The position numbers were made by a program, and so were the translations under genes. Shown here in pieces: positions 4,856-42,272 of a stretch of DNA of 42,272 bases (the stretch's first letter is position 1; each line of letters begins with the position of its first letter). This stretch comes from a virus. Lineage: Duplodnaviria > Heunggongvirae > Uroviricota > Caudoviricetes. The notes under the pieces were generated by a model. It searched no databases and was not told where the DNA came from. It saw only the letters and a program-made list of their open reading frames with translations. The DNA lies in the IMG/VR virus record IMGVR_UViG_2529292726_000021; one strand, 5' to 3'.

Positions 4856-5251
4856 ATGACCGTTAAACGCGAAAAACTGACAGTTGATGTTTACTATGCC
4901 TCTGAAACCGCCGAAGGTAAGAATGTGGCAAAAATCACCGTTGTTACGTACAACACCGAAACTGGTGCCGAAGTACAGGCCAGTACGATCGTGCGTAAAT
5001 GTGATGCCTCCGGCGGCGAGTACGCGACTCAATACCAGTCCATTCTCGATGCAACTGACCCGCTGCTGCTGAAAATCGAGAACTACTTCCGCCAGGTTGA
5101 TGAAGAGGTGTTTGAAACCATGATGAATATGGTTAATTCCGTATTCACCTCCAGCCTGAACACCAGCACCACCTGGATTGGTCAGTACGGCCTGCGCATT
5201 ACCTCTGGCATTCCTGCTGACACCTTAATCCCTGAAAGCGTATTCGCTTAA
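4856..5251 (+). CDS. hypothetical protein (131 aa)
   Basis: ATG 4856 with ACGGAGAG upstream; track ORF start 4790 lies in the terminator region and is unlikely. Confidence 0.6.
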   Translation: MTVKREKLTVDVYYASETAEGKNVAKITVVTYNTETGAEVQASTIVRKCDASGGEYATQYQSILDATDPLLLKIENYFRQVDEEVFETMMNMVNSVFTSSLNTSTTWIGQYGLRITSGIPADTLIPESVFA

Positions 5252-5637: not shown

Positions 5638-5901
5638 ATGGCAAAATTGACCAGAGCGCAGGAGCATGACCTGCGACGCGCAATTTATGATCTTGAAAGG
5701 GGGATCGCGTATCTGCGACACCCAAAAACTGCGGTTTGCTATCGCCACGATTACCCTGCAACTACCACATCGGCATATTCATCGCACGACGGGAAGACAT
5801 CACTTTCCCCTGTTTGCATCGACTACGGCTCGAATATCGTCGGTCTTTATCATGCGCTAGAAACGTTGAAAGAGTTCGTTGCAGCACATCGAAAGCAATG
5901 A
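5638..5901 (+). CDS. hypothetical small protein (87 aa)
   Basis: Internal ATG 5638 preceded by GTGAGAG preferred over track start 5602, which lacks an SD; start uncertain. Confidence 0.45.
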   Translation: MAKLTRAQEHDLRRAIYDLERGIAYLRHPKTAVCYRHDYPATTTSAYSSHDGKTSLSPVCIDYGSNIVGLYHALETLKEFVAAHRKQ

Positions 5902-6030
5902 TATATAGGCTGCCAATGCTGGTGGCCTTAAATGACCATCCTGTTCCACGCAGGCTAAAAACACCAACCTCTTACCTCTAGGCAACCGACAAACCCACCT
6001 GTTCCCGTCCGGCTACCGCAACTTTCCACT

Positions 6031-6090
6031 TTGACGCCTTATTCGTACAACGATAATTAACACCAACAAGAAAACAATTTGTTATTTACG
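6031..6090 (+). promoter_or_regulatory. early promoter/leader module, copy with sigma70-like -35
   Basis: TTGACG (6031-6036), 17 bp, TAATTA within CGATAATTAACACCAAC, then AAGAAAACAAtTTGTTATTTACG (6068-6090); ATG 6105. Confidence 0.55.
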
Positions 6091-6104
6091 ATAAGGAATT
6101 AATC

Positions 6105-6587
6105 ATGAATTTTATCGCTACTGTAAACGCACCCGCACATGGCAATATCGCTGTAACGTTCTCTGACATTGAAAAACGAGTACTTGGTGCATGGCGCGAC
6201 AATGAGACGGTAGAACTGTCAGCACAAGAAAAATGCAATATTGCACGCGACATCATTGGCAATCGTCGTTACTCGCGGGTATTTGAGAAAGCGTATGTGG
6301 TAAATTCTGGATTCGGAACGTTCGTCTTTCCGGTGCGCTCCGGGCGATTCTGCCAGTCCAAGCTGATTGAGTTCGCTACGCAGATTTCTTTCTGGATTAA
6401 AACTCAATCGTCGTTCAAATTTTCCGACGATGAAGCAGTATCGCAGGGGATGCGGATCGCCAACAATGCGATTAAATGCAAAAACATTACGTATACCGCT
6501 GGCGTTGATACATGGAAACTGTTTTGCGCTAACTTTATGCTGAATGTATACGCAAGCAACCGCATCCACATCCTTGATGGCGTGTAA
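6105..6587 (+). CDS. hypothetical protein (160 aa)
   Basis: ATG with AAGGAA 7 nt upstream; no motif recognised. Confidence 0.6.
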   Translation: MNFIATVNAPAHGNIAVTFSDIEKRVLGAWRDNETVELSAQEKCNIARDIIGNRRYSRVFEKAYVVNSGFGTFVFPVRSGRFCQSKLIEFATQISFWIKTQSSFKFSDDEAVSQGMRIANNAIKCKNITYTAGVDTWKLFCANFMLNVYASNRIHILDGV

Positions 6588-6636: not shown

Positions 6637-6761
6637 CAGGGAAATTTTCAGAAGCGGCGAGGAACGTATTCATGAGCCGACGGGGGAACGGCCAGGATTT
6701 TTTCGGGAAACGGCTGCATTCGCCTTTGTGTAGAAAAAACATCGGGAAGCTGGTGGAATCC
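6637..6761. repeat. iteron-like direct repeat array 2
   Basis: GGGGGAACGGCCAGG, GGGAAACGGCTGCATTCGCC, GGGAAGCTGGTGGAATCC share the GGRAAMGGYTG core of array 1. Confidence 0.55.
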
Positions 6762-6897: not shown

Positions 6898-7134
6898 ACG
6901 CGAGCGGATACGGAGCAAAACAAAATGCCGATCCGCGCCGACAAATAAACGCGGATCATAAAGCAAGACTAAAAGCCAATAATTAACCATACTCTATAGC
7001 GCAATATAACGCGTTTTAAGCGCGTTAATGTGTTAAGTAATGGGTATATACTGGTAAGGATATAAAAGCTCGTCTGTGGCGTTATTTTGGCGCTTATTTT
7101 TATGTTGTTGGAGTGAGTTAAAGACAATAAAAAA

Positions 7135-7214
7135 GCGCCACTATTGGCGCGTTATGGTGGAAGTATTGGAAACGAAAAAAGCGCCCATAGTGGGCGCTAT
7201 TGTTTTTATTTTTC
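7135..7214. terminator. tandem hairpins; bidirectional terminator
   Basis: GCGCCA-ctat-TGGCGC (7135-7150) and GCGCCCA-tag-TGGGCGC (7181-7197) flanked by A runs on one side and T runs on the other. Confidence 0.65.
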
Positions 7215-7433
7215 TAAGTGAATATTAAAGCCAGCGTTTAAAAATTCTTGAAGCATTAAAGTAACATCAGCTTCATTGATTCCTGCGCGCGCTCTATGTT
7301 CTACGTCATTGATGTTTATTTTAAACGTTGTTTCATCAACCACTTCAGAACTTAGAGCATATCCAGCTAAACCAGCAATATCATAAACAAGAGTATGATT
7401 ATTGATATTTACGCCAGAGATGAAAATAACCAT
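7206..7433 (-). CDS. hypothetical protein C (75 aa), AT-rich cassette
   Basis: ATG with AAGGAA 8 nt upstream on minus strand; ends just before the bidirectional terminator. Confidence 0.55.
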   Translation of the reverse strand: MVIFISGVNINNHTLVYDIAGLAGYALSSEVVDETTFKININDVEHRARAGINEADVTLMLQEFLNAGFNIHLEK

Positions 7434-7454
7434 GATTAAGTTCCTTAAAAAAAA

Positions 7455-7658
7455 TTAAATAGAATTTTGAAGTTTTCCGATTAATGCGCTTAAACGTAAG
7501 TATTCACGTTTACGCTTGCAATCTCGCTTGCTGTTAAGCAAATCAGAAAACGTAAAATTTAATTGGTCGCGTTGCGCGATTAAATCATTGATTAATTCTA
7601 GTTTATAAGCGCGATACTTTGCGCGATATTCCGCGCGGATCTTGTCATAGCTGACCAT
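7455..7658 (-). CDS. hypothetical basic protein B (67 aa), AT-rich cassette
   Basis: Start moved to ATG 7658 with AAGGAG 8 nt upstream; the track start at 7703 lies inside an intergenic hairpin. Confidence 0.5.
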   Translation of the reverse strand: MVSYDKIRAEYRAKYRAYKLELINDLIAQRDQLNFTFSDLLNSKRDCKRKREYLRLSALIGKLQNSI

Positions 7659-7706
7659 TTTTAAAGCTCCTTTAAAGCGCCCATAGTGGGCGCTTGATTC
7701 CATTAA

Positions 7707-8357
7707 TTACGCTTTGAAAGCATCAGCTAAATAATTGTAGAAATCATTTTTAATGAAGCGATATTGCTGAGTACCAGCTTTCGCGCTCCCAGCTCCTTTG
7801 ACTTTTTCAACAAGTCCAAGACGTTCGCAAAGATTGATCAACTGGTTGGCTTGAGTATAGCCAGCGTCCAATTTAATTTCACACGCTTTTTTAGCTTCAT
7901 TCATTAAATCGAAAACAGCGCCATTCGTGAACGTGTCGATCTCGTCGTTAATCATATCGATTAAAGCGAATACACGAGATCCAGACATATCAGCGACGGA
8001 ATAAACACATTTACCAGCTTTAATGGATTTAACCAGATAAACCAGTTTTTCCAGTGAATAACTATTAGTCATTGCATCACGGAAAAATACTTCTGGCGCT
8101 TGTTTACTTGCTTTAATCGCATAGTAGAAAACAGAGCATAATTTTTCGTCTTCTACTGCGTTTACGACGTTGTTGATGAAGTAAGCAAGTTTCGTGGTCG
8201 CAGCTTGCATGTTTGCTTTGTCTGCTTTTGTGTGCGTACCATTTTTATAATGTTCGTTATATGTTTGAGTTGCCAGATCTGCTTTTTCGCGCAGTTCATC
8301 GGATACAATGGAAGCAGCTTCAATGATGGATTTTTTAGAAATGATAATGTTAGTCAT
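7707..8357 (-). CDS. hypothetical protein A (216 aa), AT-rich cassette
   Basis: ATG with AAGGAA upstream; no recognisable catalytic motif; AT-rich codon usage. Confidence 0.6.
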   Translation of the reverse strand: MTNIIISKKSIIEAASIVSDELREKADLATQTYNEHYKNGTHTKADKANMQAATTKLAYFINNVVNAVEDEKLCSVFYYAIKASKQAPEVFFRDAMTNSYSLEKLVYLVKSIKAGKCVYSVADMSGSRVFALIDMINDEIDTFTNGAVFDLMNEAKKACEIKLDAGYTQANQLINLCERLGLVEKVKGAGSAKAGTQQYRFIKNDFYNYLADAFKA

Positions 8358-8655
8358 GATTTTATTCCTTAGTATAAATATTAAAATTTAACTCAAGAAA
8401 GAAAGTGTTTTGCACTCGTTCCTGATGCGTTCAATTATCGATACGCGAAAAAAGATTGCAAGTGTTTTTTTTAAGTTTTTTTGCAGGGGTGAAAGTCCTA
8501 GAAATAAAAGTTAGATCGTCGAAGGTGTTCCCTAAATAAATAATAAATTCCGGCTTTTGACCTTATATATTTATACGGGGGAGAATTGAATGAGTGTTAA
8601 ACGAATGGCATGTAAAATAATAACCGGACTTAGCCGATTATTACCCTTATAGAAA

Positions 8656-9174
8656 TTAAAACGGAAGGATTCGTTCAACCCAATCGAAGAAAATAAGTAT
8701 TTTTCTACCGTCTTCCAACTTAAGTGTGACTAGACAGGCGTCAACGCCATCTGACGTTCCCTCAATTTCGCGACCGTCTGCCATGTAGACCCTTATAGAT
8801 TTGCCGTTTTGGTAAGCCTGACGACATATCTTAAAAAAGTCACGACGTGATGGCTGATTAACCATCTGTTCATTGTTTAGCGTTAGTCGACCTGTGAATG
8901 AAGTGTCAACCTCTTCTATGCCCGACTCAATTGTGCTAATGCGCTCAAGAGGGAGCCTTATACGATTTGTGTTGCTAAGCGGATCTGGTGTGAGGTTCAG
9001 CTTATTTCTTGCGCTCAATAGCCCGTAGACATACATGCAAAACACTTGGCCGTCTTCGAGAGTGACTCTTACAGGAAATTTTGCACTCCGCCAGAAGAGC
9101 AAGGTGCGCTCAGCATGTTCGTAGTCTCGCGGCCAGACTTCAGCCGGTATGCCGTAGGTGATGTCTTTAACCAT
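8656..9174 (-). CDS. hypothetical protein (172 aa) with internal repeat
   Basis: ATG with AAGG upstream; two related segments (VRVTLEDGQVFCMYVY and VTLKLEDGRKILIFFDWV). Confidence 0.55.
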   Translation of the reverse strand: MVKDITYGIPAEVWPRDYEHAERTLLFWRSAKFPVRVTLEDGQVFCMYVYGLLSARNKLNLTPDPLSNTNRIRLPLERISTIESGIEEVDTSFTGRLTLNNEQMVNQPSRRDFFKICRQAYQNGKSIRVYMADGREIEGTSDGVDACLVTLKLEDGRKILIFFDWVERILPF

Positions 9175-9276
9175 AGTCTACCTTTTTAAGTCTTTTTTGG
9201 TCATTATATACATCTCTATGATGCGTAGACAGACTAACCGTACATTCCACCAAAAATTGATTATGGAATAAGTTTC

Positions 9277-10077
9277 ATGAAGAATGGGGTGAATAAAAAA
9301 TACTCATTAGCATTGTTAATAGCGGCTTTACTATTAACAGGTTGTGATTCTGATGAAGAGCGAGCCATAGATCTAGTTGAAAAGGATATTCGCTCTACAC
9401 TGCTAGATCCTGATGCTGGTCGGTTCACGAATATGCGAGCTATTCAGTTAGGTGAAAATAGCTATTCATATATGGTATGTGGAGAGGTGAATGGTAAAAA
9501 CGTCTTGAACGCCTATACAGGTGCGACCGCATTCAATGCACACATCTTTGATGTTCGTGAACGTAACCCGATTGTATTCGTTGCAATGGATAAAAGTACC
9601 AACTCGGCAAGAGAACGATTACGTTTTGAACGCCAAAATCTAGCATGTAAAGAAAATGGTGTGAAACTTTATCTGGAAAACGAATCTAAAATCAGGAAGG
9701 AAAAAGAGAAAATAGATGATTTAAAAAAAACTCCATTAGGTCAGGCTGTGTTTGATGCTGCAAGTGATTCGACATATGTGAGTAGAGAGTTGGGCGAATC
9801 GAGAGGTGTTAGTGAAGTGTATGCAAGAGAAAATGATAAATATGCTCTTGTTAGCGTCACCAATTATGACACTCCTGACTTTTACAAATTTAGGAAAAAA
9901 GACAACGGTGAACTAGAACCTGTTAGGGGACTGTCTTATACCGGCTATCCATTCGCGGTTACACTGTGCCATTCTGAACAAACAGATTATGACAAATGTA
10001 TAACAGAAGAAGAAATCAAGTTGCTTCGAGACGAAAAGAATAAGCTCGATGATTTTGTCGTGCCACCAGAAGAATAA
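9277..10077 (+). CDS. putative lipoprotein (266 aa)
   Basis: N-terminus MKNGVNKKYSLALLIAALLLTGC has a signal peptide and lipobox (LTGC) with Cys at residue 23; AT-rich. Confidence 0.65.
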   Translation: MKNGVNKKYSLALLIAALLLTGCDSDEERAIDLVEKDIRSTLLDPDAGRFTNMRAIQLGENSYSYMVCGEVNGKNVLNAYTGATAFNAHIFDVRERNPIVFVAMDKSTNSARERLRFERQNLACKENGVKLYLENESKIRKEKEKIDDLKKTPLGQAVFDAASDSTYVSRELGESRGVSEVYARENDKYALVSVTNYDTPDFYKFRKKDNGELEPVRGLSYTGYPFAVTLCHSEQTDYDKCITEEEIKLLRDEKNKLDDFVVPPEE

Positions 10078-10137
10078 CATATACAAAATATTTAATTGCT
10101 GTTAATATTTAATCGTTCAGACATAGGGAAAGTCCGA

Positions 10138-10171
10138 ACCCTCGACAAATCTTTCTGATATTGTCGAGGGT
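10138..10171. terminator. hairpin between convergent genes
   Basis: ACCCTCGACAA-atctttctgata-TTGTCGAGGGT between the lipoprotein stop (10077) and the minus-strand gene stop (10190). Confidence 0.5.
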
Positions 10172-10189
10172 ATGCTTCCAAGTGATGAG

Positions 10190-10543
10190 CTACTTATACC
10201 CTAATTCTTTACAGCTTTCTTCAAAAACCTCTTTAGGTAGGATATTTAGATCTACAATAGTGTTGCTGTTCTTGGTTAACACGTCATTGTAAGGAATTTG
10301 TACCCATCTGTAACCTGTATACCCACCATATGAGTTAGTCGCATTTAGTTTGAAACAATATGTATTGCTACCTTCAACGTGATCTGGGAATTTGTATTTA
10401 GCTGCATCCGGGGCCAGTAATTGTTTTTCTATAATATTTTTAATGTAATCTTGCTGAACGGGCGTTAAAGGTTTGGCTACTGTATTTCCTATATAGAATG
10501 CCAAGAGTGCCATAGAAAAAAATTGAATTTTTTTAGACTTCAT
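10190..10543 (-). CDS. putative secreted small protein (117 aa)
   Basis: From ATG 10543 the N-terminus MKSKKIQFFSMALLAFYIGNTVA is a typical signal peptide; the track start at 10564 is a TTG without SD. Confidence 0.55.
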   Translation of the reverse strand: MKSKKIQFFSMALLAFYIGNTVAKPLTPVQQDYIKNIIEKQLLAPDAAKYKFPDHVEGSNTYCFKLNATNSYGGYTGYRWVQIPYNDVLTKNSNTIVDLNILPKEVFEESCKELGYK

Positions 10544-10571
10544 CTTTTTAACCGTCTTTGACAATGAGAGT

Positions 10572-11147
10572 TTATGAGCGTTTGTTGAGCAGATCTACAA
10601 TCAGCTTTTGAGGTGTATTTTCCTCTTTTGTCTTAGGTAATCCATTCTGAGGTAGCGTCGATAGTCTGTTCTTATCTCCTCTAGGTAACTCAAGCCTTTT
10701 CTTGATCTGCACAATAAGTTCCCATAGACTGTCTTCGTTCTCAACCTTTATAGAGTAGCCTACGCCACAATATGAATCACTTTTTAAGCGATTGTGAATT
10801 TTGAACGTATTGAAGTTTGAGCTTAACTGAATATATCCTGGGGTAATACCATCTATACTTTCGATCACAGGAAGTATTTCTTTTATCTGGAAAGGGAAAA
10901 TGACCAATGAATAATCATCTCGTCTTTCCTCATTGTCTGGTGAAATTAAATAAATGTAGTAAGGGTTGTTTTTTGAATAAGATTCTCGTAATGCTGAACT
11001 CTTTCCGAAGTAGAAACCTTTAGCGTGAATTTTATCTTTCGTTTCTTTCCCCCGTTGTATCTGAATGTTATTTTCGCTAAGTGTCCCATTTGATACATAT
11101 GAAGCTTTATCCAATATCGTGTGAAGTTGTGTATTTGAAAGAGCCAT
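10572..11147 (-). CDS. hypothetical protein (191 aa)
   Basis: ATG with AAGGGA 8 nt upstream; no motif recognised. Confidence 0.6.
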   Translation of the reverse strand: MALSNTQLHTILDKASYVSNGTLSENNIQIQRGKETKDKIHAKGFYFGKSSALRESYSKNNPYYIYLISPDNEERRDDYSLVIFPFQIKEILPVIESIDGITPGYIQLSSNFNTFKIHNRLKSDSYCGVGYSIKVENEDSLWELIVQIKKRLELPRGDKNRLSTLPQNGLPKTKEENTPQKLIVDLLNKRS

Positions 11148-11291
11148 TAGCTATCCCTTCGACCAAACTCAGCGATGAAGCCTACAAATATCATTCAGCC
11201 AATCAAGAATTTTTTTCAGCCGGAGGTGTGCACTTCAAAAAATGTGATGAATGTCACATGCAGGTGCTCTCATACACCTGCATGTAGACTA

Positions 11292-11858
11292 TTAATCATT
11301 CAATAATCTATATTTTCTTTTGATTAAATCTTCACCTTTTTTGGTGAACACAAAACCAAATTGCGATTTTTTGTTCAGCCTAAGGACTCTGTTATCCAAC
11401 GCATCGGTTGATGGAATCAATGTTTGATCATCTATCCAATTTAGTAGCGTAAGAAAGTTCAGCAGCCTCAACGTTGTTGTGCGAAGCTCTTTCGATATAT
11501 TTTCAATGCTGGCAATTCGTCTTTCTTTTTTCTCAGGTAGTACAGATAATTGTTCTTGAGGTTTCGTGGATAGATAATCAATTTCGTTTGCAGCATCGAA
11601 TGATATGTGTGGCGTTATTTTGCTAAAAAAGCCTTTCGCTGACTCACTTGATAATAAACCAGACCTATTCATATCGTTTGTTATTCTGTACAGGAGTGGA
11701 CTGTGTTTCATTTCAGGATAACGTTGATAAAAGTTAAGCAATTCAAAAGCAGCATTAGCGCCAACAAGAAAATCAGAAGGATCGCTGACTTTCCAGAAAG
11801 AATGATTTTTCTTAGCGCCAGTGGTGTCAACAAATGATAATTCTTTTAACCAACTCAT
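11292..11858 (-). CDS. hypothetical protein (188 aa)
   Basis: Start moved to ATG 11858 (AAGGAG 7 nt upstream); SD and start lie inside a 10-bp-stem inverted repeat (11859-11890). Confidence 0.55.
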   Translation of the reverse strand: MSWLKELSFVDTTGAKKNHSFWKVSDPSDFLVGANAAFELLNFYQRYPEMKHSPLLYRITNDMNRSGLLSSESAKGFFSKITPHISFDAANEIDYLSTKPQEQLSVLPEKKERRIASIENISKELRTTTLRLLNFLTLLNWIDDQTLIPSTDALDNRVLRLNKKSQFGFVFTKKGEDLIKRKYRLLND

Positions 11859-11923
11859 GATGTGCTCCTTTCTAACAAGTGAGCACATCATAGAATTAGT
11901 AGATAGGGGGTAAATATAAAATG

Positions 11924-12202
11924 TTACGGCAACCTGCTCAGTATTTCCTCTAAATCTTTTTTTGTCATATTGGAGTTTTCATAGATGCGCATGATTTTCT
12001 CACGCGTCTTAGCGGAAACCCCAACGGCAGATGTGACTTTGTCAAATTCAGCCATAGTCATCGTCTCCAGAATGGCATTGATAACTTCAGCCTTAGACAT
12101 CTTGATTTTTTTCTCTTTGAGTTTTATTTGGAATTTTCCAAGTTTTTCATTGGCCTTATCAGACAATGCCACTTGGCAATAAGTTGTTTTCTTTTCGCTC
12201 AT
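11924..12202 (-). CDS. hypothetical small Lys-rich protein (92 aa), possibly DNA-binding
   Basis: ATG 2 nt after the helicase stop (translational coupling); 5' coding region contains AAGAAAACAACTTATTG, resembling the early motif. Confidence 0.5.
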   Translation of the reverse strand: MSEKKTTYCQVALSDKANEKLGKFQIKLKEKKIKMSKAEVINAILETMTMAEFDKVTSAVGVSAKTREKIMRIYENSNMTKKDLEEILSRLP

Positions 12203-12204
12203 AA

Positions 12205-13764
12205 CTAATCTCGTTTCAGAACTCCAAAATCGAATGCGCCATCAATAGGCAATACACCTTCCGCAAAGCCAGGTGTGGTGTCGATGATGTGTTTTCGCTC
12301 ATAAGAGTGAGACAACAGGTATTTGTTGCTAATGTCAATGAAATCAGTGATAAAACACACGTTTGCCTGATTCTTCTTGGCTCGTAAGCCACGACCGACA
12401 CGCTGCCTCATTTCAACTTCTGCTTTCCCACCACCAGCAAGAATGACCGCACCAACGCTTGGCACATCAACACCGACATCCAGAATAGTCGAGCCTATTA
12501 AAACATCTATTTCGCCAGACGCTAAACTGTTCAGCTTTGCTTGCCTTGTCGACTGGTTCGATTCCCCATAAATGAAGTCAACTCTAAGGCCGGACTCTTT
12601 CATCATTTCCATCAGGATTTGCCCGTGGCGTTTAAGACGAACCAGAGTCATACAATTGAGAGAATGTTGCTTATAGAGCAATGCTTCGCGAACAATGGCC
12701 TCATTACGTCCCAAATTATACACGATCCCCAACTGATAAGCCTTTTGGTAGGCGGTGCTCATACCAACTCTAAAATTGAGGTGTTTGTTGGCAAGTTCTG
12801 CCTTGATTCTGGCCTCGTCCGGCTTGTAGGCAACTTTATGATAAAGGAAGTATGGTTTTGCCAGAATGCCTCGATCAATCAGGTACTTTTCTGTGACTTT
12901 AATTTCAATTCGCCCGGCCACAGCCATCAGACGCATGTTGGCTTCTGTAGAATCCTTCATGAACGGCGTGGCCGTAAGCGCCAGACGATAGTCTGCGTTC
13001 ACACATAATCTGGCAATGTCATAGAAATTAGAACCTGAAGACTCATGCGCCTCTTCCAGAATAAGCAGAGACACACTTGAAAGGAAGCGTTTCACCAAGT
13101 CCCGACGTTTGAGGTGGTAGCTCTTCTTATCTGGAGTTGCATCGCGTGGTGGTTCTTCAAGGAAACTTGCCAGAGTTTGAACTGTAGCGACGTTGATATG
13201 TCGTGATACCTGGAACTCACCAGAGCCAATGACTCCAACCTTTTGGTCTTTTAACCACGGTTCGCCATTTTCGGCGCGGTAGTCGATGGATCTCTGGAAG
13301 TTTTCGGCCATCTGAAACATCAGAACAGAGCGAGTTGTTAAAAATAATGTCATTCGACCGATACGTGCAGCCGCTTTGCAGGCAACATTAGATTTCCCGC
13401 CACCAGTAGCGATCTGCGCAATCATCATTCCCTCTCGAACCAGTGTTTCCACAGTCTGATCCTGATACGCATAATCAGGATTGTATGGGAATGGGTTAAC
13501 CGCCGGATTTGGTTTACCAAGCGCCGGGGCTTTGTCTTTGCGGATATGAACACATTTGATGCCCGCCTTGTTCAAGTTCGCCGCTACAGGCTTGGCAAAG
13601 CCAGCAGGGAACGAGTTTTTACTCCAGTTGAACATTGTGCTTGTGCCCTTCCAGTCGCCAGTCTCGACTTCGTAGCTCAACATCTGTTGCACCAGTTGCT
13701 TTACCTTGTCATCTGCGCCAGAAATAAGCGCATTAACTGCGTTAGATACAATCCGAACAGTCAT
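12205..13764 (-). CDS. superfamily 2 DNA helicase (DEAH-type)
   Basis: Motif I ATGGGKS, motif II LEEAH, motif III TATP, motif VI RVGRGLR in order; AAGGAAAGAGG upstream of ATG. Confidence 0.75.
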   Translation of the reverse strand: MTVRIVSNAVNALISGADDKVKQLVQQMLSYEVETGDWKGTSTMFNWSKNSFPAGFAKPVAANLNKAGIKCVHIRKDKAPALGKPNPAVNPFPYNPDYAYQDQTVETLVREGMMIAQIATGGGKSNVACKAAARIGRMTLFLTTRSVLMFQMAENFQRSIDYRAENGEPWLKDQKVGVIGSGEFQVSRHINVATVQTLASFLEEPPRDATPDKKSYHLKRRDLVKRFLSSVSLLILEEAHESSGSNFYDIARLCVNADYRLALTATPFMKDSTEANMRLMAVAGRIEIKVTEKYLIDRGILAKPYFLYHKVAYKPDEARIKAELANKHLNFRVGMSTAYQKAYQLGIVYNLGRNEAIVREALLYKQHSLNCMTLVRLKRHGQILMEMMKESGLRVDFIYGESNQSTRQAKLNSLASGEIDVLIGSTILDVGVDVPSVGAVILAGGGKAEVEMRQRVGRGLRAKKNQANVCFITDFIDISNKYLLSHSYERKHIIDTTPGFAEGVLPIDGAFDFGVLKRD

Positions 13765-39590: not shown

Positions 39591-41950
39591 ATGTGGTACA
39601 GGGAAGGTACTATCACATTTACACAGGGTAGCAATACTCTGGTTGGGGCAGGGACAGCCTGGAACGTAACAGCTAATGGTGTGTTGCCGGGGATGATCGT
39701 CATTGGCCCCGACAATAAGCTGTATGAGATCAAGCGCGTAACCAGTGATACGAACATTGTTCTCTCAGAACCTTATACCGGCGAAACTCAGTCTGAAGTT
39801 CCGTGCCGAATCATTACGACCTATGAAGGCGACTTAACACAGTTTAGCGCGCGCTTTACTGCGCTAATGTCGCGTATGTCGGCTGATTCCAAGTCCATAC
39901 GCAGTTGGTTGACTGCGCTGGATGAGGTGACAATCGAGCGTGAAGACGGTACAGAAGTGACCGTTAAGCCGCTAATGCAGATCGTCAACGAGCACAACGA
40001 AAACGTTGAGTGGTATAAAAATAACACTGACGCGATTGATGCTGCTGGCGACAAAGCTCGTGAGGCGGCGGCCAGTGCTGCCGCAGCAGCCAAAAGCGCC
40101 AATGCCGCTGGAGAAAAAGCCTCTCAAGCGTCTCAAAGTGCATCCGCTGCGGCATCCTCACAAAGTGCCGCAAGTGCGAGTGCAACTGCTGCGAAAAAAT
40201 CTGAAACGAATGCTGCAGCGTCACAAAAATCTGCAGCCACTTCTGCATCCACCGCGACCACGAAGGCGTCAGAAGCTGCCACCTCAGCCCGGGATGCGGC
40301 GGCCTCAAAAGAGGCAGCGAAATCATCAGAAACGAGCGCAGCCTCGAGCGCCAGTAATGCCGCTTCCTCGGCAACGGCGGCAGGAAATTCCGCGAAGGCG
40401 GCAAAAACGTCCGAGACGAACGCCAGGTCTTCTGAAACGGCAGCGGGACAGAGCGCCTCGGCTGCGGCAGGCTCAAAAACAGCGGCTGCGTCGTCTGCCA
40501 GTGCCGCGTCAACAAGTGCCGGGCAGGCCTCAGCCAGTGCCACCGCCGCCGGAAAATCGGCAGAAAGTGCCGCATCGTCTGCTTCAACTGCCACAACGAA
40601 GGCTGGCCAAGCCACTGAACAGGCCAGCGCAGCAGCGAGGTCTGCTTCCGCAGCGAAGACATCCGAAACGAACGCGAAAGCGTCGGAAACCCGTGCAGAA
40701 TCCTCAAAAACGGCAGCCGCATCGTCCGCCAGTTCGGCGGCGTCATCGGCATCATCGGCGTCTGCTTCAAAAGATGAGGCGACCAGACAGGCGTCAGCAG
40801 CGAAGGGCAGCGCCACGACGGCATCCACGAAAGCAACAGAGGCGGCAGGCAGTGCGACGGCAGCATCTCAGAGCAAAACTGCTGCTGAATCCGCTGCGAC
40901 CCGTGCGGAAGCTGCTGCTGATCGTGCTGAAGAGATTGCCGGTGCAGTTGCGATGGAAGACGCAAGCCTTACAACTAAAGGTGTTGTGAAACTTAGCAGT
41001 GCTGTCGACAGCACCAGTGAATCGCTGGCCGCAACGCCAAAAGCAGTTAAAGCAGCCAATGACAATGCGAATAGCAGGGTGCCATCTAACCGAAAAGTTA
41101 ACGGTAAAGCACTGACTGCGGATATCAAATTAACGCCGAAAGATATTGGTACTTTAAATTCAGTAACGATGTCTTTCTCTGGCGGGGCAGGGTGGTTCAA
41201 ACTGGCTACGGTTACCATGCCACAAGCGAGTTCCATCGTTTACATCGCATTGATTGGTGGCGCTGGTTACAACGTCGGCTCCCCACATCAGGCAGGCATT
41301 TCAGAACTGGTTCTACGAGCAGGCAATGGAAACCCCAAAGGGATTACAGGTGCTTTGTGGAAGCGTACAGCTGTCGGATTAACGAATTTCGCCTGGATCA
41401 ACACATCCGGCGATACATATGATATTTACGTTGAGATTGGCAATTATGCGACTCGTGTAAATATCCATTGGGATTGTACTGCAAATGCGACAGTTTCTAT
41501 TTATACATCGCCAACATATTCAGCGAGTAAGCCTTCCAGCGTTACCGATGGTGTTGTTTATACGATGTATAGCACACATCAGAAACCGACGCCGTTAGAT
41601 ATTGGAGCACTGCCAACAACCGGAGGAACAGTTTCAGGTCCGTTGTCTGTTACAGGTGGATTAACTGGTTCATTGAATGGTAATGCAAGTACAGCCACGA
41701 AATTGCAGACGGCAAGATCTATCGGTGGAGTTGTTTTCGACGGTTCTGCAAATATTAACCTTCCAGGTGTAAACACTACGGGTAATCAGAACACCACTGG
41801 TAATGCTGCAACTGCTACAAAACTTCAGACGGCAAGAACTATCGGCGGCGTGAGCTTTGATGGTACTGCGAATATTAATTTGCCAGGTGTTAATACGACT
41901 GGTAATCAGAACACAACGGGCAACGCGGCTACTGCTACGAAGTTGCAGAC
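39591..41950 (+). pseudogene. side tail fibre (Stf-like) gene truncated at the 3' end by IS2
   Basis: ATG with AAGGAG upstream; long Ala/Ser-rich repeat region with recurring KTSETNA units; TKLQTAR(S/T)IGGV...NTTGNQNTTGNAATA repeats; frame runs into the IS2 end at 41951. Confidence 0.75.
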
Positions 41951-42272
41951 TGGATTTGCCCCTATATTTCCAGACATCTGTTATCACTTAACCCATTACA
42001 AGCCCGCTGCCGCAGATATTCCCGTGGCGAGCGATAACCCAGCGCACTATGCGGATGCCATTCGTTATAATGCTCGAACGCCTCTGCAAGGTTCTTTGCT
42101 GCCGTTAACCCGTCTGGTTTGGGCATGATACTGATGTAGTCACGCTTTATCGTTTTCACGAAGCTCTCTGCTATTCCGTTACTCTCCGGACTCCGCACCG
42201 CCGTGTTCTTCGGTTCAAGTCCCAACATCCGGGCGAACTGGCGTGTTTCATTAGCCCGGTAGCATGAACCAT
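41951..42272 (-). mobile_element. IS2 (IS3 family), partial copy continuing beyond window
   Basis: Terminal sequence TGGATTTGCCCCTATATTTCCAGACATCTG matches remembered IS2 end; encodes the C-terminus of the IS2 orfB transposase. Confidence 0.85.
41962..42272 (-). CDS. insD: IS2 transposase orfB (InsD), C-terminal part
   Basis: Translation ...[35 protein letters not shown]...[31 protein letters not shown] matches remembered IS2 InsD C-terminus. Confidence 0.85.

Follow-up and report, generated by a model that had tools for sequence, protein, structure and literature searches.

The gene at positions 8656..9174 on the minus strand of IMG/VR virus record IMGVR_UViG_2529292726_000021, a stretch of 42,272 nucleotides (nt) that we refer to as the window, encodes a protein of 172 amino acids (aa) that, judged by its sequence, is almost certainly a member of the family of FljA, the flagellin repressor of Salmonella enterica. 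In textbook accounts of Salmonella flagellar phase variation, FljA provides the post-transcriptional half. Structure prediction makes it very likely that the 172-aa protein consists of two Sm-like domains, and its gene is a syntenic backbone gene of SSU5-type phage-plasmids, with variable cargo inserted upstream of it. The reading we tentatively favour, and would place a little short of an even chance, is that of an FljA-family mRNA repressor in a phage-plasmid backbone, with a target other than flagellin that is probably encoded by the element. This is a known family in an undescribed setting, and the fold assignment would explain RNA binding by its members.

The open reading frame (ORF) was called correctly in the first-pass annotation of this DNA, running from an ATG at 9174 to a stop codon at 8656-8658 and giving 172 aa; overlooked there was that the product belongs to the FljA family over its full length. 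A Pfam scan matched PF03614 (FljA; Flag1_repress; 'Repressor of phase-1 flagellin') end to end at E = 1.3e-68, with residues 4-169 of 172 covering profile positions 1-170 of 170 at 230.5 bits against a cut-off of 24, and a second profile, PHROG 1444, was matched at E = 7e-90. Homology to a known phage morphogenetic protein, which the first-pass annotation had named as a finding that would speak against its own proposal, was seen with neither Pfam nor PHROG, and we set this identity aside. The PF03614-type family is tiny, a profile search of 1.84 billion representative proteins returning 29 matches. Escherichia phage PhiR41_1 encodes an identical protein (100%), and the 172-aa protein is present on 349 contigs; flagellin-linked FljA proteins of Salmonella and Atlantibacter can be aligned with it over the whole length at 35-41% identity (P0083-P0094 make up the flagellin-linked clade of our alignment A2, and P0097 is the Typhimurium-type FljA sequence).

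Likeness to Salmonella FljA extends to size (172 aa vs 176-179 aa) and to the residues that the family holds constant. A2 has 23 invariant columns, among them G8, E12, P15-Y18, D112-F114, D164-V166, R168 and I169, so that the N-terminal motif and the invariant residues of both domains are held in common. The motif, DITYGIPAEVWPRDY, spans residues 4-18 (9121..9165, minus strand) and is modelled with a predicted local distance difference test score (pLDDT) of 50-68. Within it G8, E12, P15, R16, D17 and Y18 are invariant across the phage-plasmid proteins and the FljA proteins of Salmonella and Atlantibacter, while four deep lineages (P0096, P0109, P0114 and P0116) have lost the motif or keep a degenerate form.

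An AlphaFold2 model built with a 33-sequence alignment reached a pLDDT of 85.7 and a predicted template modelling score of 0.83, and in it a helix followed by five strands occurs twice. The first Hfq-like (Sm) domain, residues 19-84 (8923..9120, minus strand), is made of helix 19-30 and strands 34-39, 44-53, 58-62, 71-75 and 79-84. Domain 2, residues 114-172 (8659..8835, minus strand), has the same secondary structure, with helix 114-122 and strands 126-131, 136-144, 148-152, 158-162 and 166-171, and bears the invariant FDWV-x-RI motif. The linker between them, residues 85-113 (8836..8922, minus strand), holds one short strand at 96-98 and the RRDF that starts repeat 2; it is the most variable stretch of the family alignment, and pLDDT falls to 62 at residues 101-110.

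Fold searches were run with the full-length model and with a model of the N domain. Foldseek against the PDB returned Hfq in all 50 matches listed, with a probability of 1.00 and target TM-scores of 0.66-0.82, and the best structural matches were Hfq proteins at a root-mean-square deviation of 1.3-1.5 Å and 12-23% identity. The full-length model outscored the N-domain model for 7uwy_A (9.5 vs 7.3) and for the Hfq-like protein MJ1435 (7.9 vs 6.5). Pfam gave sub-threshold LSM and Hfq matches at residues 119-163, in domain 2 (PF17209 Hfq at 12.9 bits, cut-off 27; PF01423 LSM at 13.1 bits, cut-off 23.4), and a domain-2 profile searched against the PDB gave nine weak matches, eight of which were LSm, Sm or Hfq proteins. 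Sequence matches to the Sm1 motif were weak for both domains, and hhalign of the domain profiles against E. coli Hfq gave P = 0.0015 for the N domain and P = 0.13 for the C domain. We found no solved structure of FljA in the PDB, and a literature search found no description of the FljA fold or of FljA as Hfq-like.

These results bear on the central proposal of the first-pass annotation, which had seen in the protein a duplicated small beta-barrel unit of a nucleic-acid-binding type. The idea of a duplication agrees with the model, in which the Sm/Hfq fold is predicted twice, and structure prediction with Foldseek, the check suggested at the time, gave tandem domains; the segments quoted as the two copies are not the repeat. 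Both segments exist, VRVTLEDGQVFCMYVYGLL at residues 35-53 (nt 9016-9072) and VTLKLEDGRKILIFFDWV at residues 149-166 (nt 8677-8730), and the best local alignment of the N half with the C half is exactly this pair, but their likeness is at chance level, with a BLOSUM62 score of 26 against a shuffle mean of 22.8 (standard deviation 4.1) and 21% of 2000 shuffles scoring at least 26. The second LEDG is confined to the closest relatives, being VGEQ, VGNG or IDNG elsewhere. Since VRVTLEDGQVFCMYVYGLL forms strands 1-2 of domain 1 and VTLKLEDGRKILIFFDWV strands 3-5 of domain 2, the segments are not equivalent, and we rejected this register. Internal repeat detection by profile-profile alignment of the halves paired residues 30-45 with 122-137 (P = 0.007), and a whole-domain alignment over 58 columns (P = 0.005) matched RDY with RDF, PVRV with SIRV, DG with DG and ERI with ERI. 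The internal repeat is real, though weak in sequence and in another register than the one first noted, and it is clear in the predicted structure.

Each half resembles Hfq in its predicted N-terminal helix and five bent strands and in an Sm1-like pattern, [IV]-x-[IV]-x-[LM]-x-[DN]-G, and the conserved R29 stands where Hfq has its rim residue R16. Unlike Hfq, which is a homohexamer of one domain, the FljA-like protein has two domains per chain. In a manual alignment on predicted strand boundaries, made for a region of Hfq to which hhalign did not extend, the Sm2 positions of the proximal uridine pocket (Y/F-K-H; YKH in Hfq) are replaced by L-E-R (76-78) in domain 1 and V-E-R (166-168) in domain 2. 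The roles differ as well, Hfq being a general chaperone and FljA a specific repressor of one mRNA.

The unconserved YKH residues are one reason to consider a role that involves no specific RNA binding, in which the double Sm-like protein would bind a protein, as Rof binds Rho, or else, in the manner of Sm-like WYL domains, DNA or a ligand. In one form of this explanation the protein would be the 'transcriptional regulator' of annotation pipelines, perhaps acting on the boxes in the spacer described below; the acidic to neutral character of the protein fits such a role, and some factor has to read the invariant DNA blocks that precede the promoter of the neighbouring 216-aa gene. The Pfam scan of the 172-aa protein argues against it, with no helix-turn-helix, no other DNA-binding domain and no Rof family match. 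Rof (YaeO), an Sm-like Rho inhibitor, also differs from the FljA-like protein in being a single domain of ~85 aa that binds Rho and not RNA, and it is a clearly weaker structural match than Hfq, with no sequence-family match. The characterized member of the family, FljA itself, acts post-transcriptionally on mRNA (PMC2652032). Taken with this, we think a role apart from RNA quite improbable. A defence-system role is not supported either, since a PADLOC scan gave no match for the FljA-like protein.

A sequence-specific mRNA-binding repressor is the function best supported, because the protein shares the family of FljA, FljA acts on mRNA and the predicted fold is a double Hfq-like one. We consider it likely that the protein is such a repressor, with RNA binding and translational repression presumed by analogy. 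Yamamoto and Kutsukake reportedly found in 2006 that fliC mRNA is bound by purified FljA, which inhibits translation of the message in vitro, and that the message then decays. The phage T4 protein RegA, the MS2/Qβ coat protein and CsrA are likewise small proteins that stop initiation by binding specific mRNA leaders around the ribosome-binding site; they are functional analogues only, with unrelated folds, none of them a tandem Sm. FljA-type proteins have been found to block translation of fliC mRNA, and a plasmid with fljA(z66) turned motile E. coli non-motile (PMC2652032). The phage-plasmid protein presumably acts in the same way, through leader binding and a translation block. In the mechanism we propose from this homology, two fused Hfq-like (Sm-fold) domains behind a short conserved N-terminal arm would sit on an mRNA leader, block its translation and thereby expose the mRNA to decay.

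The setting of the gene differs from that of Salmonella FljA, as there is no linked second flagellin gene and no invertase; the gene lies instead in a phage-plasmid backbone with conserved neighbours of its own, and is found also in hosts without flagella. Over 7000-12300 the window shares 97.6% identity with Escherichia phage PhiR41_1; the element infects E. coli K-12 and belongs to the SSU5 group of phage-plasmids. We compared the loci of SSU5, Y. pestis pFra and plasmids of Klebsiella, Cronobacter and E. coli LF82 (the last being phage Cyrano), and further those of a 56%-identical lineage without cargo, a 38%-identical Klebsiella lineage and the most distant lineage, P0114. In every element examined the order is ParB-ParB / helicase, a 92-aa ORF, variable cargo where present, the FljA-like gene, a spacer of ~300 nt and a 216-aa gene. 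This order is kept even in P0114, which is found on ~111-kb Klebsiella plasmids and is matched by the family profile at E = 1.6e-7. As an observation on the records themselves, the coding sequence start in the SSU5 record (L001 5001-5519) is annotated at 5073 while similarity begins at 5001, likely an annotation problem.

In the window the block is headed by the backbone helicase (12205-13764, minus strand; Pfam DEAD, ResIII and Helicase_C), followed by the 92-aa ORF (11924-12202, minus strand), a backbone gene that keeps its place in all related loci. Between this ORF and the FljA-like gene lies the low-G+C cargo of four genes (9277..11891). The cargo site has different content in different elements and is empty in three of them (L009-L011), where no gene lies between the 92-aa ORF and the FljA-like gene. 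The G+C content of the FljA-like gene is 46.2%, at the backbone level (window 46.8%), and that of the cargo is low at 37.0%, so the gene is not part of the island. The first-pass annotation had placed it alone within that island, a claim that neither its base composition nor its conserved synteny bears out; the divergent lipoprotein-like gene described beside it is there, at 9277-10077.

Downstream in every phage-plasmid locus examined is the 216-aa gene (7707..8357, minus strand; PHROG 1513), whose product had no Pfam match. It is the most conserved gene of the block, with a ratio of nonsynonymous to synonymous substitution rates (dN/dS) of 0.01-0.11 (its counterpart in L018 is at 5809-6468). 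The 298-nt spacer that separates it from the FljA-like gene (8358..8655, minus strand; alignments A4 and A6) is far better conserved than the flanking proteins across distant phage-plasmid lineages. The spacer contains the blocks ACACCTTC and CTAAGACTTT, two TATAAGG boxes and a promoter found by promoter scan (-35 TTGCAA and -10 GATAAT, 8461-8434); the 216-aa gene also has its leader and Shine-Dalgarno sequence there, and ACACCTTC and CTAAGACTTT lie upstream of the promoter. These blocks are invariant even in L012, where the FljA-like protein is 38% identical, and in L015, where it is matched by the profile at E = 1.6e-7. An Rfam scan of 7000-9400 found nothing in the spacer and only sub-threshold matches elsewhere. 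The blocks are the obvious place to seek a cis target, and under our proposal the main RNA target would be element-encoded, or at least other than flagellin, with the leader of the 216-aa gene as first candidate.

At the start of the spacer, just past the stop codon of the FljA-like gene, is a terminator-like hairpin (8614..8647, minus strand) with a 14-bp stem followed by AUUUUA. Its RNA fold has an energy of -12.7 kcal/mol (z = -3.6), and its arms are conserved in phage-plasmids of E. coli, Salmonella, Klebsiella, Y. pestis and Cronobacter. On the other side of the gene, the 102-bp divergent intergenic region holds a candidate -10 hexamer, TATAAT (9203..9208, minus strand), and a plausible AAGG Shine-Dalgarno sequence stands upstream of the gene, both read by eye from the sequence. 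The hexamer has no good -35 partner, which is why it is missing from the consensus promoter scan.

The FljA-like protein is widespread, being encoded on 832 PLSDB plasmids, 823 of them at a coverage of at least 80%. By genus the carriers are Klebsiella (342), Escherichia (229), Enterobacter (92), Yersinia (62) and Salmonella (60); they are mostly non-mobilizable, and those listed measure ~100-126 kb. The Klebsiella and Yersinia carriers are for the most part non-motile, as K. pneumoniae and Y. pestis are. The gene is under purifying selection, with pairwise dN/dS of 0.09-0.29, Klebsiella and Y. pestis copies included and with dS saturated for the most distant pairs. Two further database entries stood out. 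A chromosomal copy in E. coli (P0072, 5.2-Mb contig, 48% identity) has unrelated residue runs between conserved blocks, as in a frameshifted or decaying copy. A 171-aa protein labelled 'Gemella morbillorum' (P0078), from a Gram-positive assembly, is 68% identical but matches no more than 43% of the query, a pattern that points to contamination or a chimera.

Expression data come from E. coli LF82, whose phage-plasmid Cyrano carries a homologue, CYRAN_114, that is 75% identical to the 172-aa protein. In the published RNA-seq table (PMC9928086 S1 Table), CYRAN_114 has log2(fpkm+5) values, from fragments per kilobase per million reads, of 4.2 in overnight lysogeny broth (LB) and 6.9-8.1 in conditions B1, B6, MB1 and MB6. 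Structural genes lie near 3-4 in the same table (PMC9928086), so the gene is expressed in the plasmid (lysogenic) state. CYRAN_114 is transcribed together with its divergent neighbour in Cyrano (PMC9928086). The 216-aa gene, CYRAN_113, has values of 2.3-3.9, reaching 5.5-5.7 in the last condition only (PMC9928086 S1 Table), and in overnight LB, where the FljA-like gene is transcribed, it is nearly silent.

Expression in a lysogen is also what would be expected of lysogenic conversion, in which the FljA-like protein would bind to the leader of host fliC mRNA and so stop flagellin synthesis in cells that carry the phage-plasmid or are infected by it. Possible benefits include the saving of resources, the exclusion of flagellum-dependent phages and the hiding of the Toll-like receptor 5 ligand, and the Klebsiella and Y. 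pestis copies would then be carried along as the elements move between hosts. Homology to FljA over the full length speaks for this explanation, as do the N-terminal motif and the many Arg, Asp and Gly positions that are invariant between the clades. E. coli, host of the element, is flagellated, and FljA-type repressors work across species, as fljA(z66) does in E. coli (PMC2652032). Against a fliC target, the gene is intact and under purifying selection in the 342 Klebsiella and 62 Yersinia plasmids, the deepest lineages found are those of Klebsiella phage-plasmids, and in the loci examined synteny is with the helicase and the 216-aa gene and never with flagellin. E. coli LF82, carrying Cyrano, and S. 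Typhi CT18, carrying pHCM2, are natural carriers that we take to be motile and FliC-making, which also counts against it. On balance we regard lysogenic conversion of this kind as rather unlikely.

The reading with a target other than flagellin draws on the same facts from the other side: the fixed synteny, retention under selection in non-flagellate hosts, the deep lineages in Klebsiella and expression in lysogens of motile strains. That the main target is not flagellin is in our view evenly poised. By tblastn there is no flagellin gene in the 42-kb window, and none stands beside the FljA-like gene in any phage-plasmid locus examined. Atlantibacter differs in that a flagellin gene immediately precedes its FljA gene, and the region that holds both is prophage-like. 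In Atlantibacter hermannii (L007 1-5531) the pair adjoins phage tail-tip and tail-spike genes, with an integrase near, so that flagellin-linked FljA genes are themselves on prophage-like DNA.

In a midpoint-rooted neighbour-joining tree, a distance method, the flagellin-linked proteins form one clade (100% bootstrap) that is sister to the main phage-plasmid clade (99%). A group of P0109, P0114 and P0116 falls outside both (91%), P0114 having a phage-plasmid context and P0109 a compatible one. This topology is consistent with one capture event, by which flagellin switches gained a phage-plasmid gene, and the Salmonella flagellin repressor would then be a captured offshoot of a phage-plasmid protein. 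The sister position of the flagellin-linked clade is also most simply explained by an ancestor that recognised fliC mRNA, as the lysogenic conversion explanation would have it. The full proposal, that the family is at root one of phage-plasmid double-Hfq mRNA repressors of an element gene, from which the Salmonella repressor was captured once, is more speculative, and we hold it to be doubtful as a whole.

Several points weigh against an FljA-family repressor with an element-encoded target. The literature search turned up no experiment on the FljA-like protein or on any phage-plasmid homologue, the double Sm fold rests on a predicted structure, and the root of the tree is a midpoint root only. 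The main phage-plasmid clade and genuine FljA have the N-terminal motif DITYG..AE.WPRDY in common, which fits a shared fliC mRNA target, and capture into a flagellin switch is easier to explain if the phage-plasmid protein already bound fliC mRNA. The spacer and the leader of the 216-aa gene are no more than candidates for the bound site. The isoelectric point of the protein is 5.9, mildly acidic; across the family, genuine FljA included, it ranges from 5.4 to 9.6, a spread that makes it uninformative as a test of RNA binding. Lastly, blastn-short with the E. coli K-12 fliC promoter, leader and start found no fliC-leader-like sequence in the window beyond chance. The best match, an exact 12-mer, TGAGCCGACGGG, at 6673-6684 (plus strand; E = 0.22), is probably chance, and the remaining matches are short (E 0.85-13), a few of them falling on the AATCATG start-codon context. 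With matches at chance level, this search gave no sign of a decoy or shared fliC operator in the window.

A few observations on the neighbouring DNA can be added. In a Pfam scan of nine neighbours the helicase was the only one with a family. Its PADLOC matches were all of a generic helicase kind; those to PbeA, a candidate defence-system helicase, were moderate (E down to 5e-23) and probably reflect the shared helicase core only. The cargo products of 266 aa (9277-10077) and 124 aa (10190-10564) share a match to PHROG 2320, which makes them look like lipoprotein-like paralogues. The ORF equivalent to 7455-7703 of the window is labelled 'MIT family metal ion transporter CorA' though it is 67-82 aa long, likely a misannotation. 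The segment 40001-41000 lies inside an 845-aa ORF (39591-42128, plus strand) with which the tail region ends; its G+C content climbs sharply to 59.4% against ~47%, with an AT skew of 0.31, and it might be a mosaic or repeat-rich receptor-binding segment.

The predicted double-Hfq architecture offers a concrete model for how FljA may grip an mRNA leader, in which R29, the ERI motifs and FDWV stand out as residues of interest. Most family copies that we found lie outside flagellin switches, in the backbones of SSU5-type phage-plasmids, elements that clinical Klebsiella, E. coli, Enterobacter and Salmonella commonly carry and that include pFra/pMT1 of Y. pestis. This leaves the puzzle of a 'flagellin repressor' kept by phage-plasmids of non-flagellate hosts. 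Either these elements quietly modulate the motility and flagellin display of their hosts, or a specific Hfq-like repressor serves their own control. If control of an element gene and a single capture both prove true, the family would represent a new class of phage-encoded Hfq-like regulators and would give the origin of a textbook switch.
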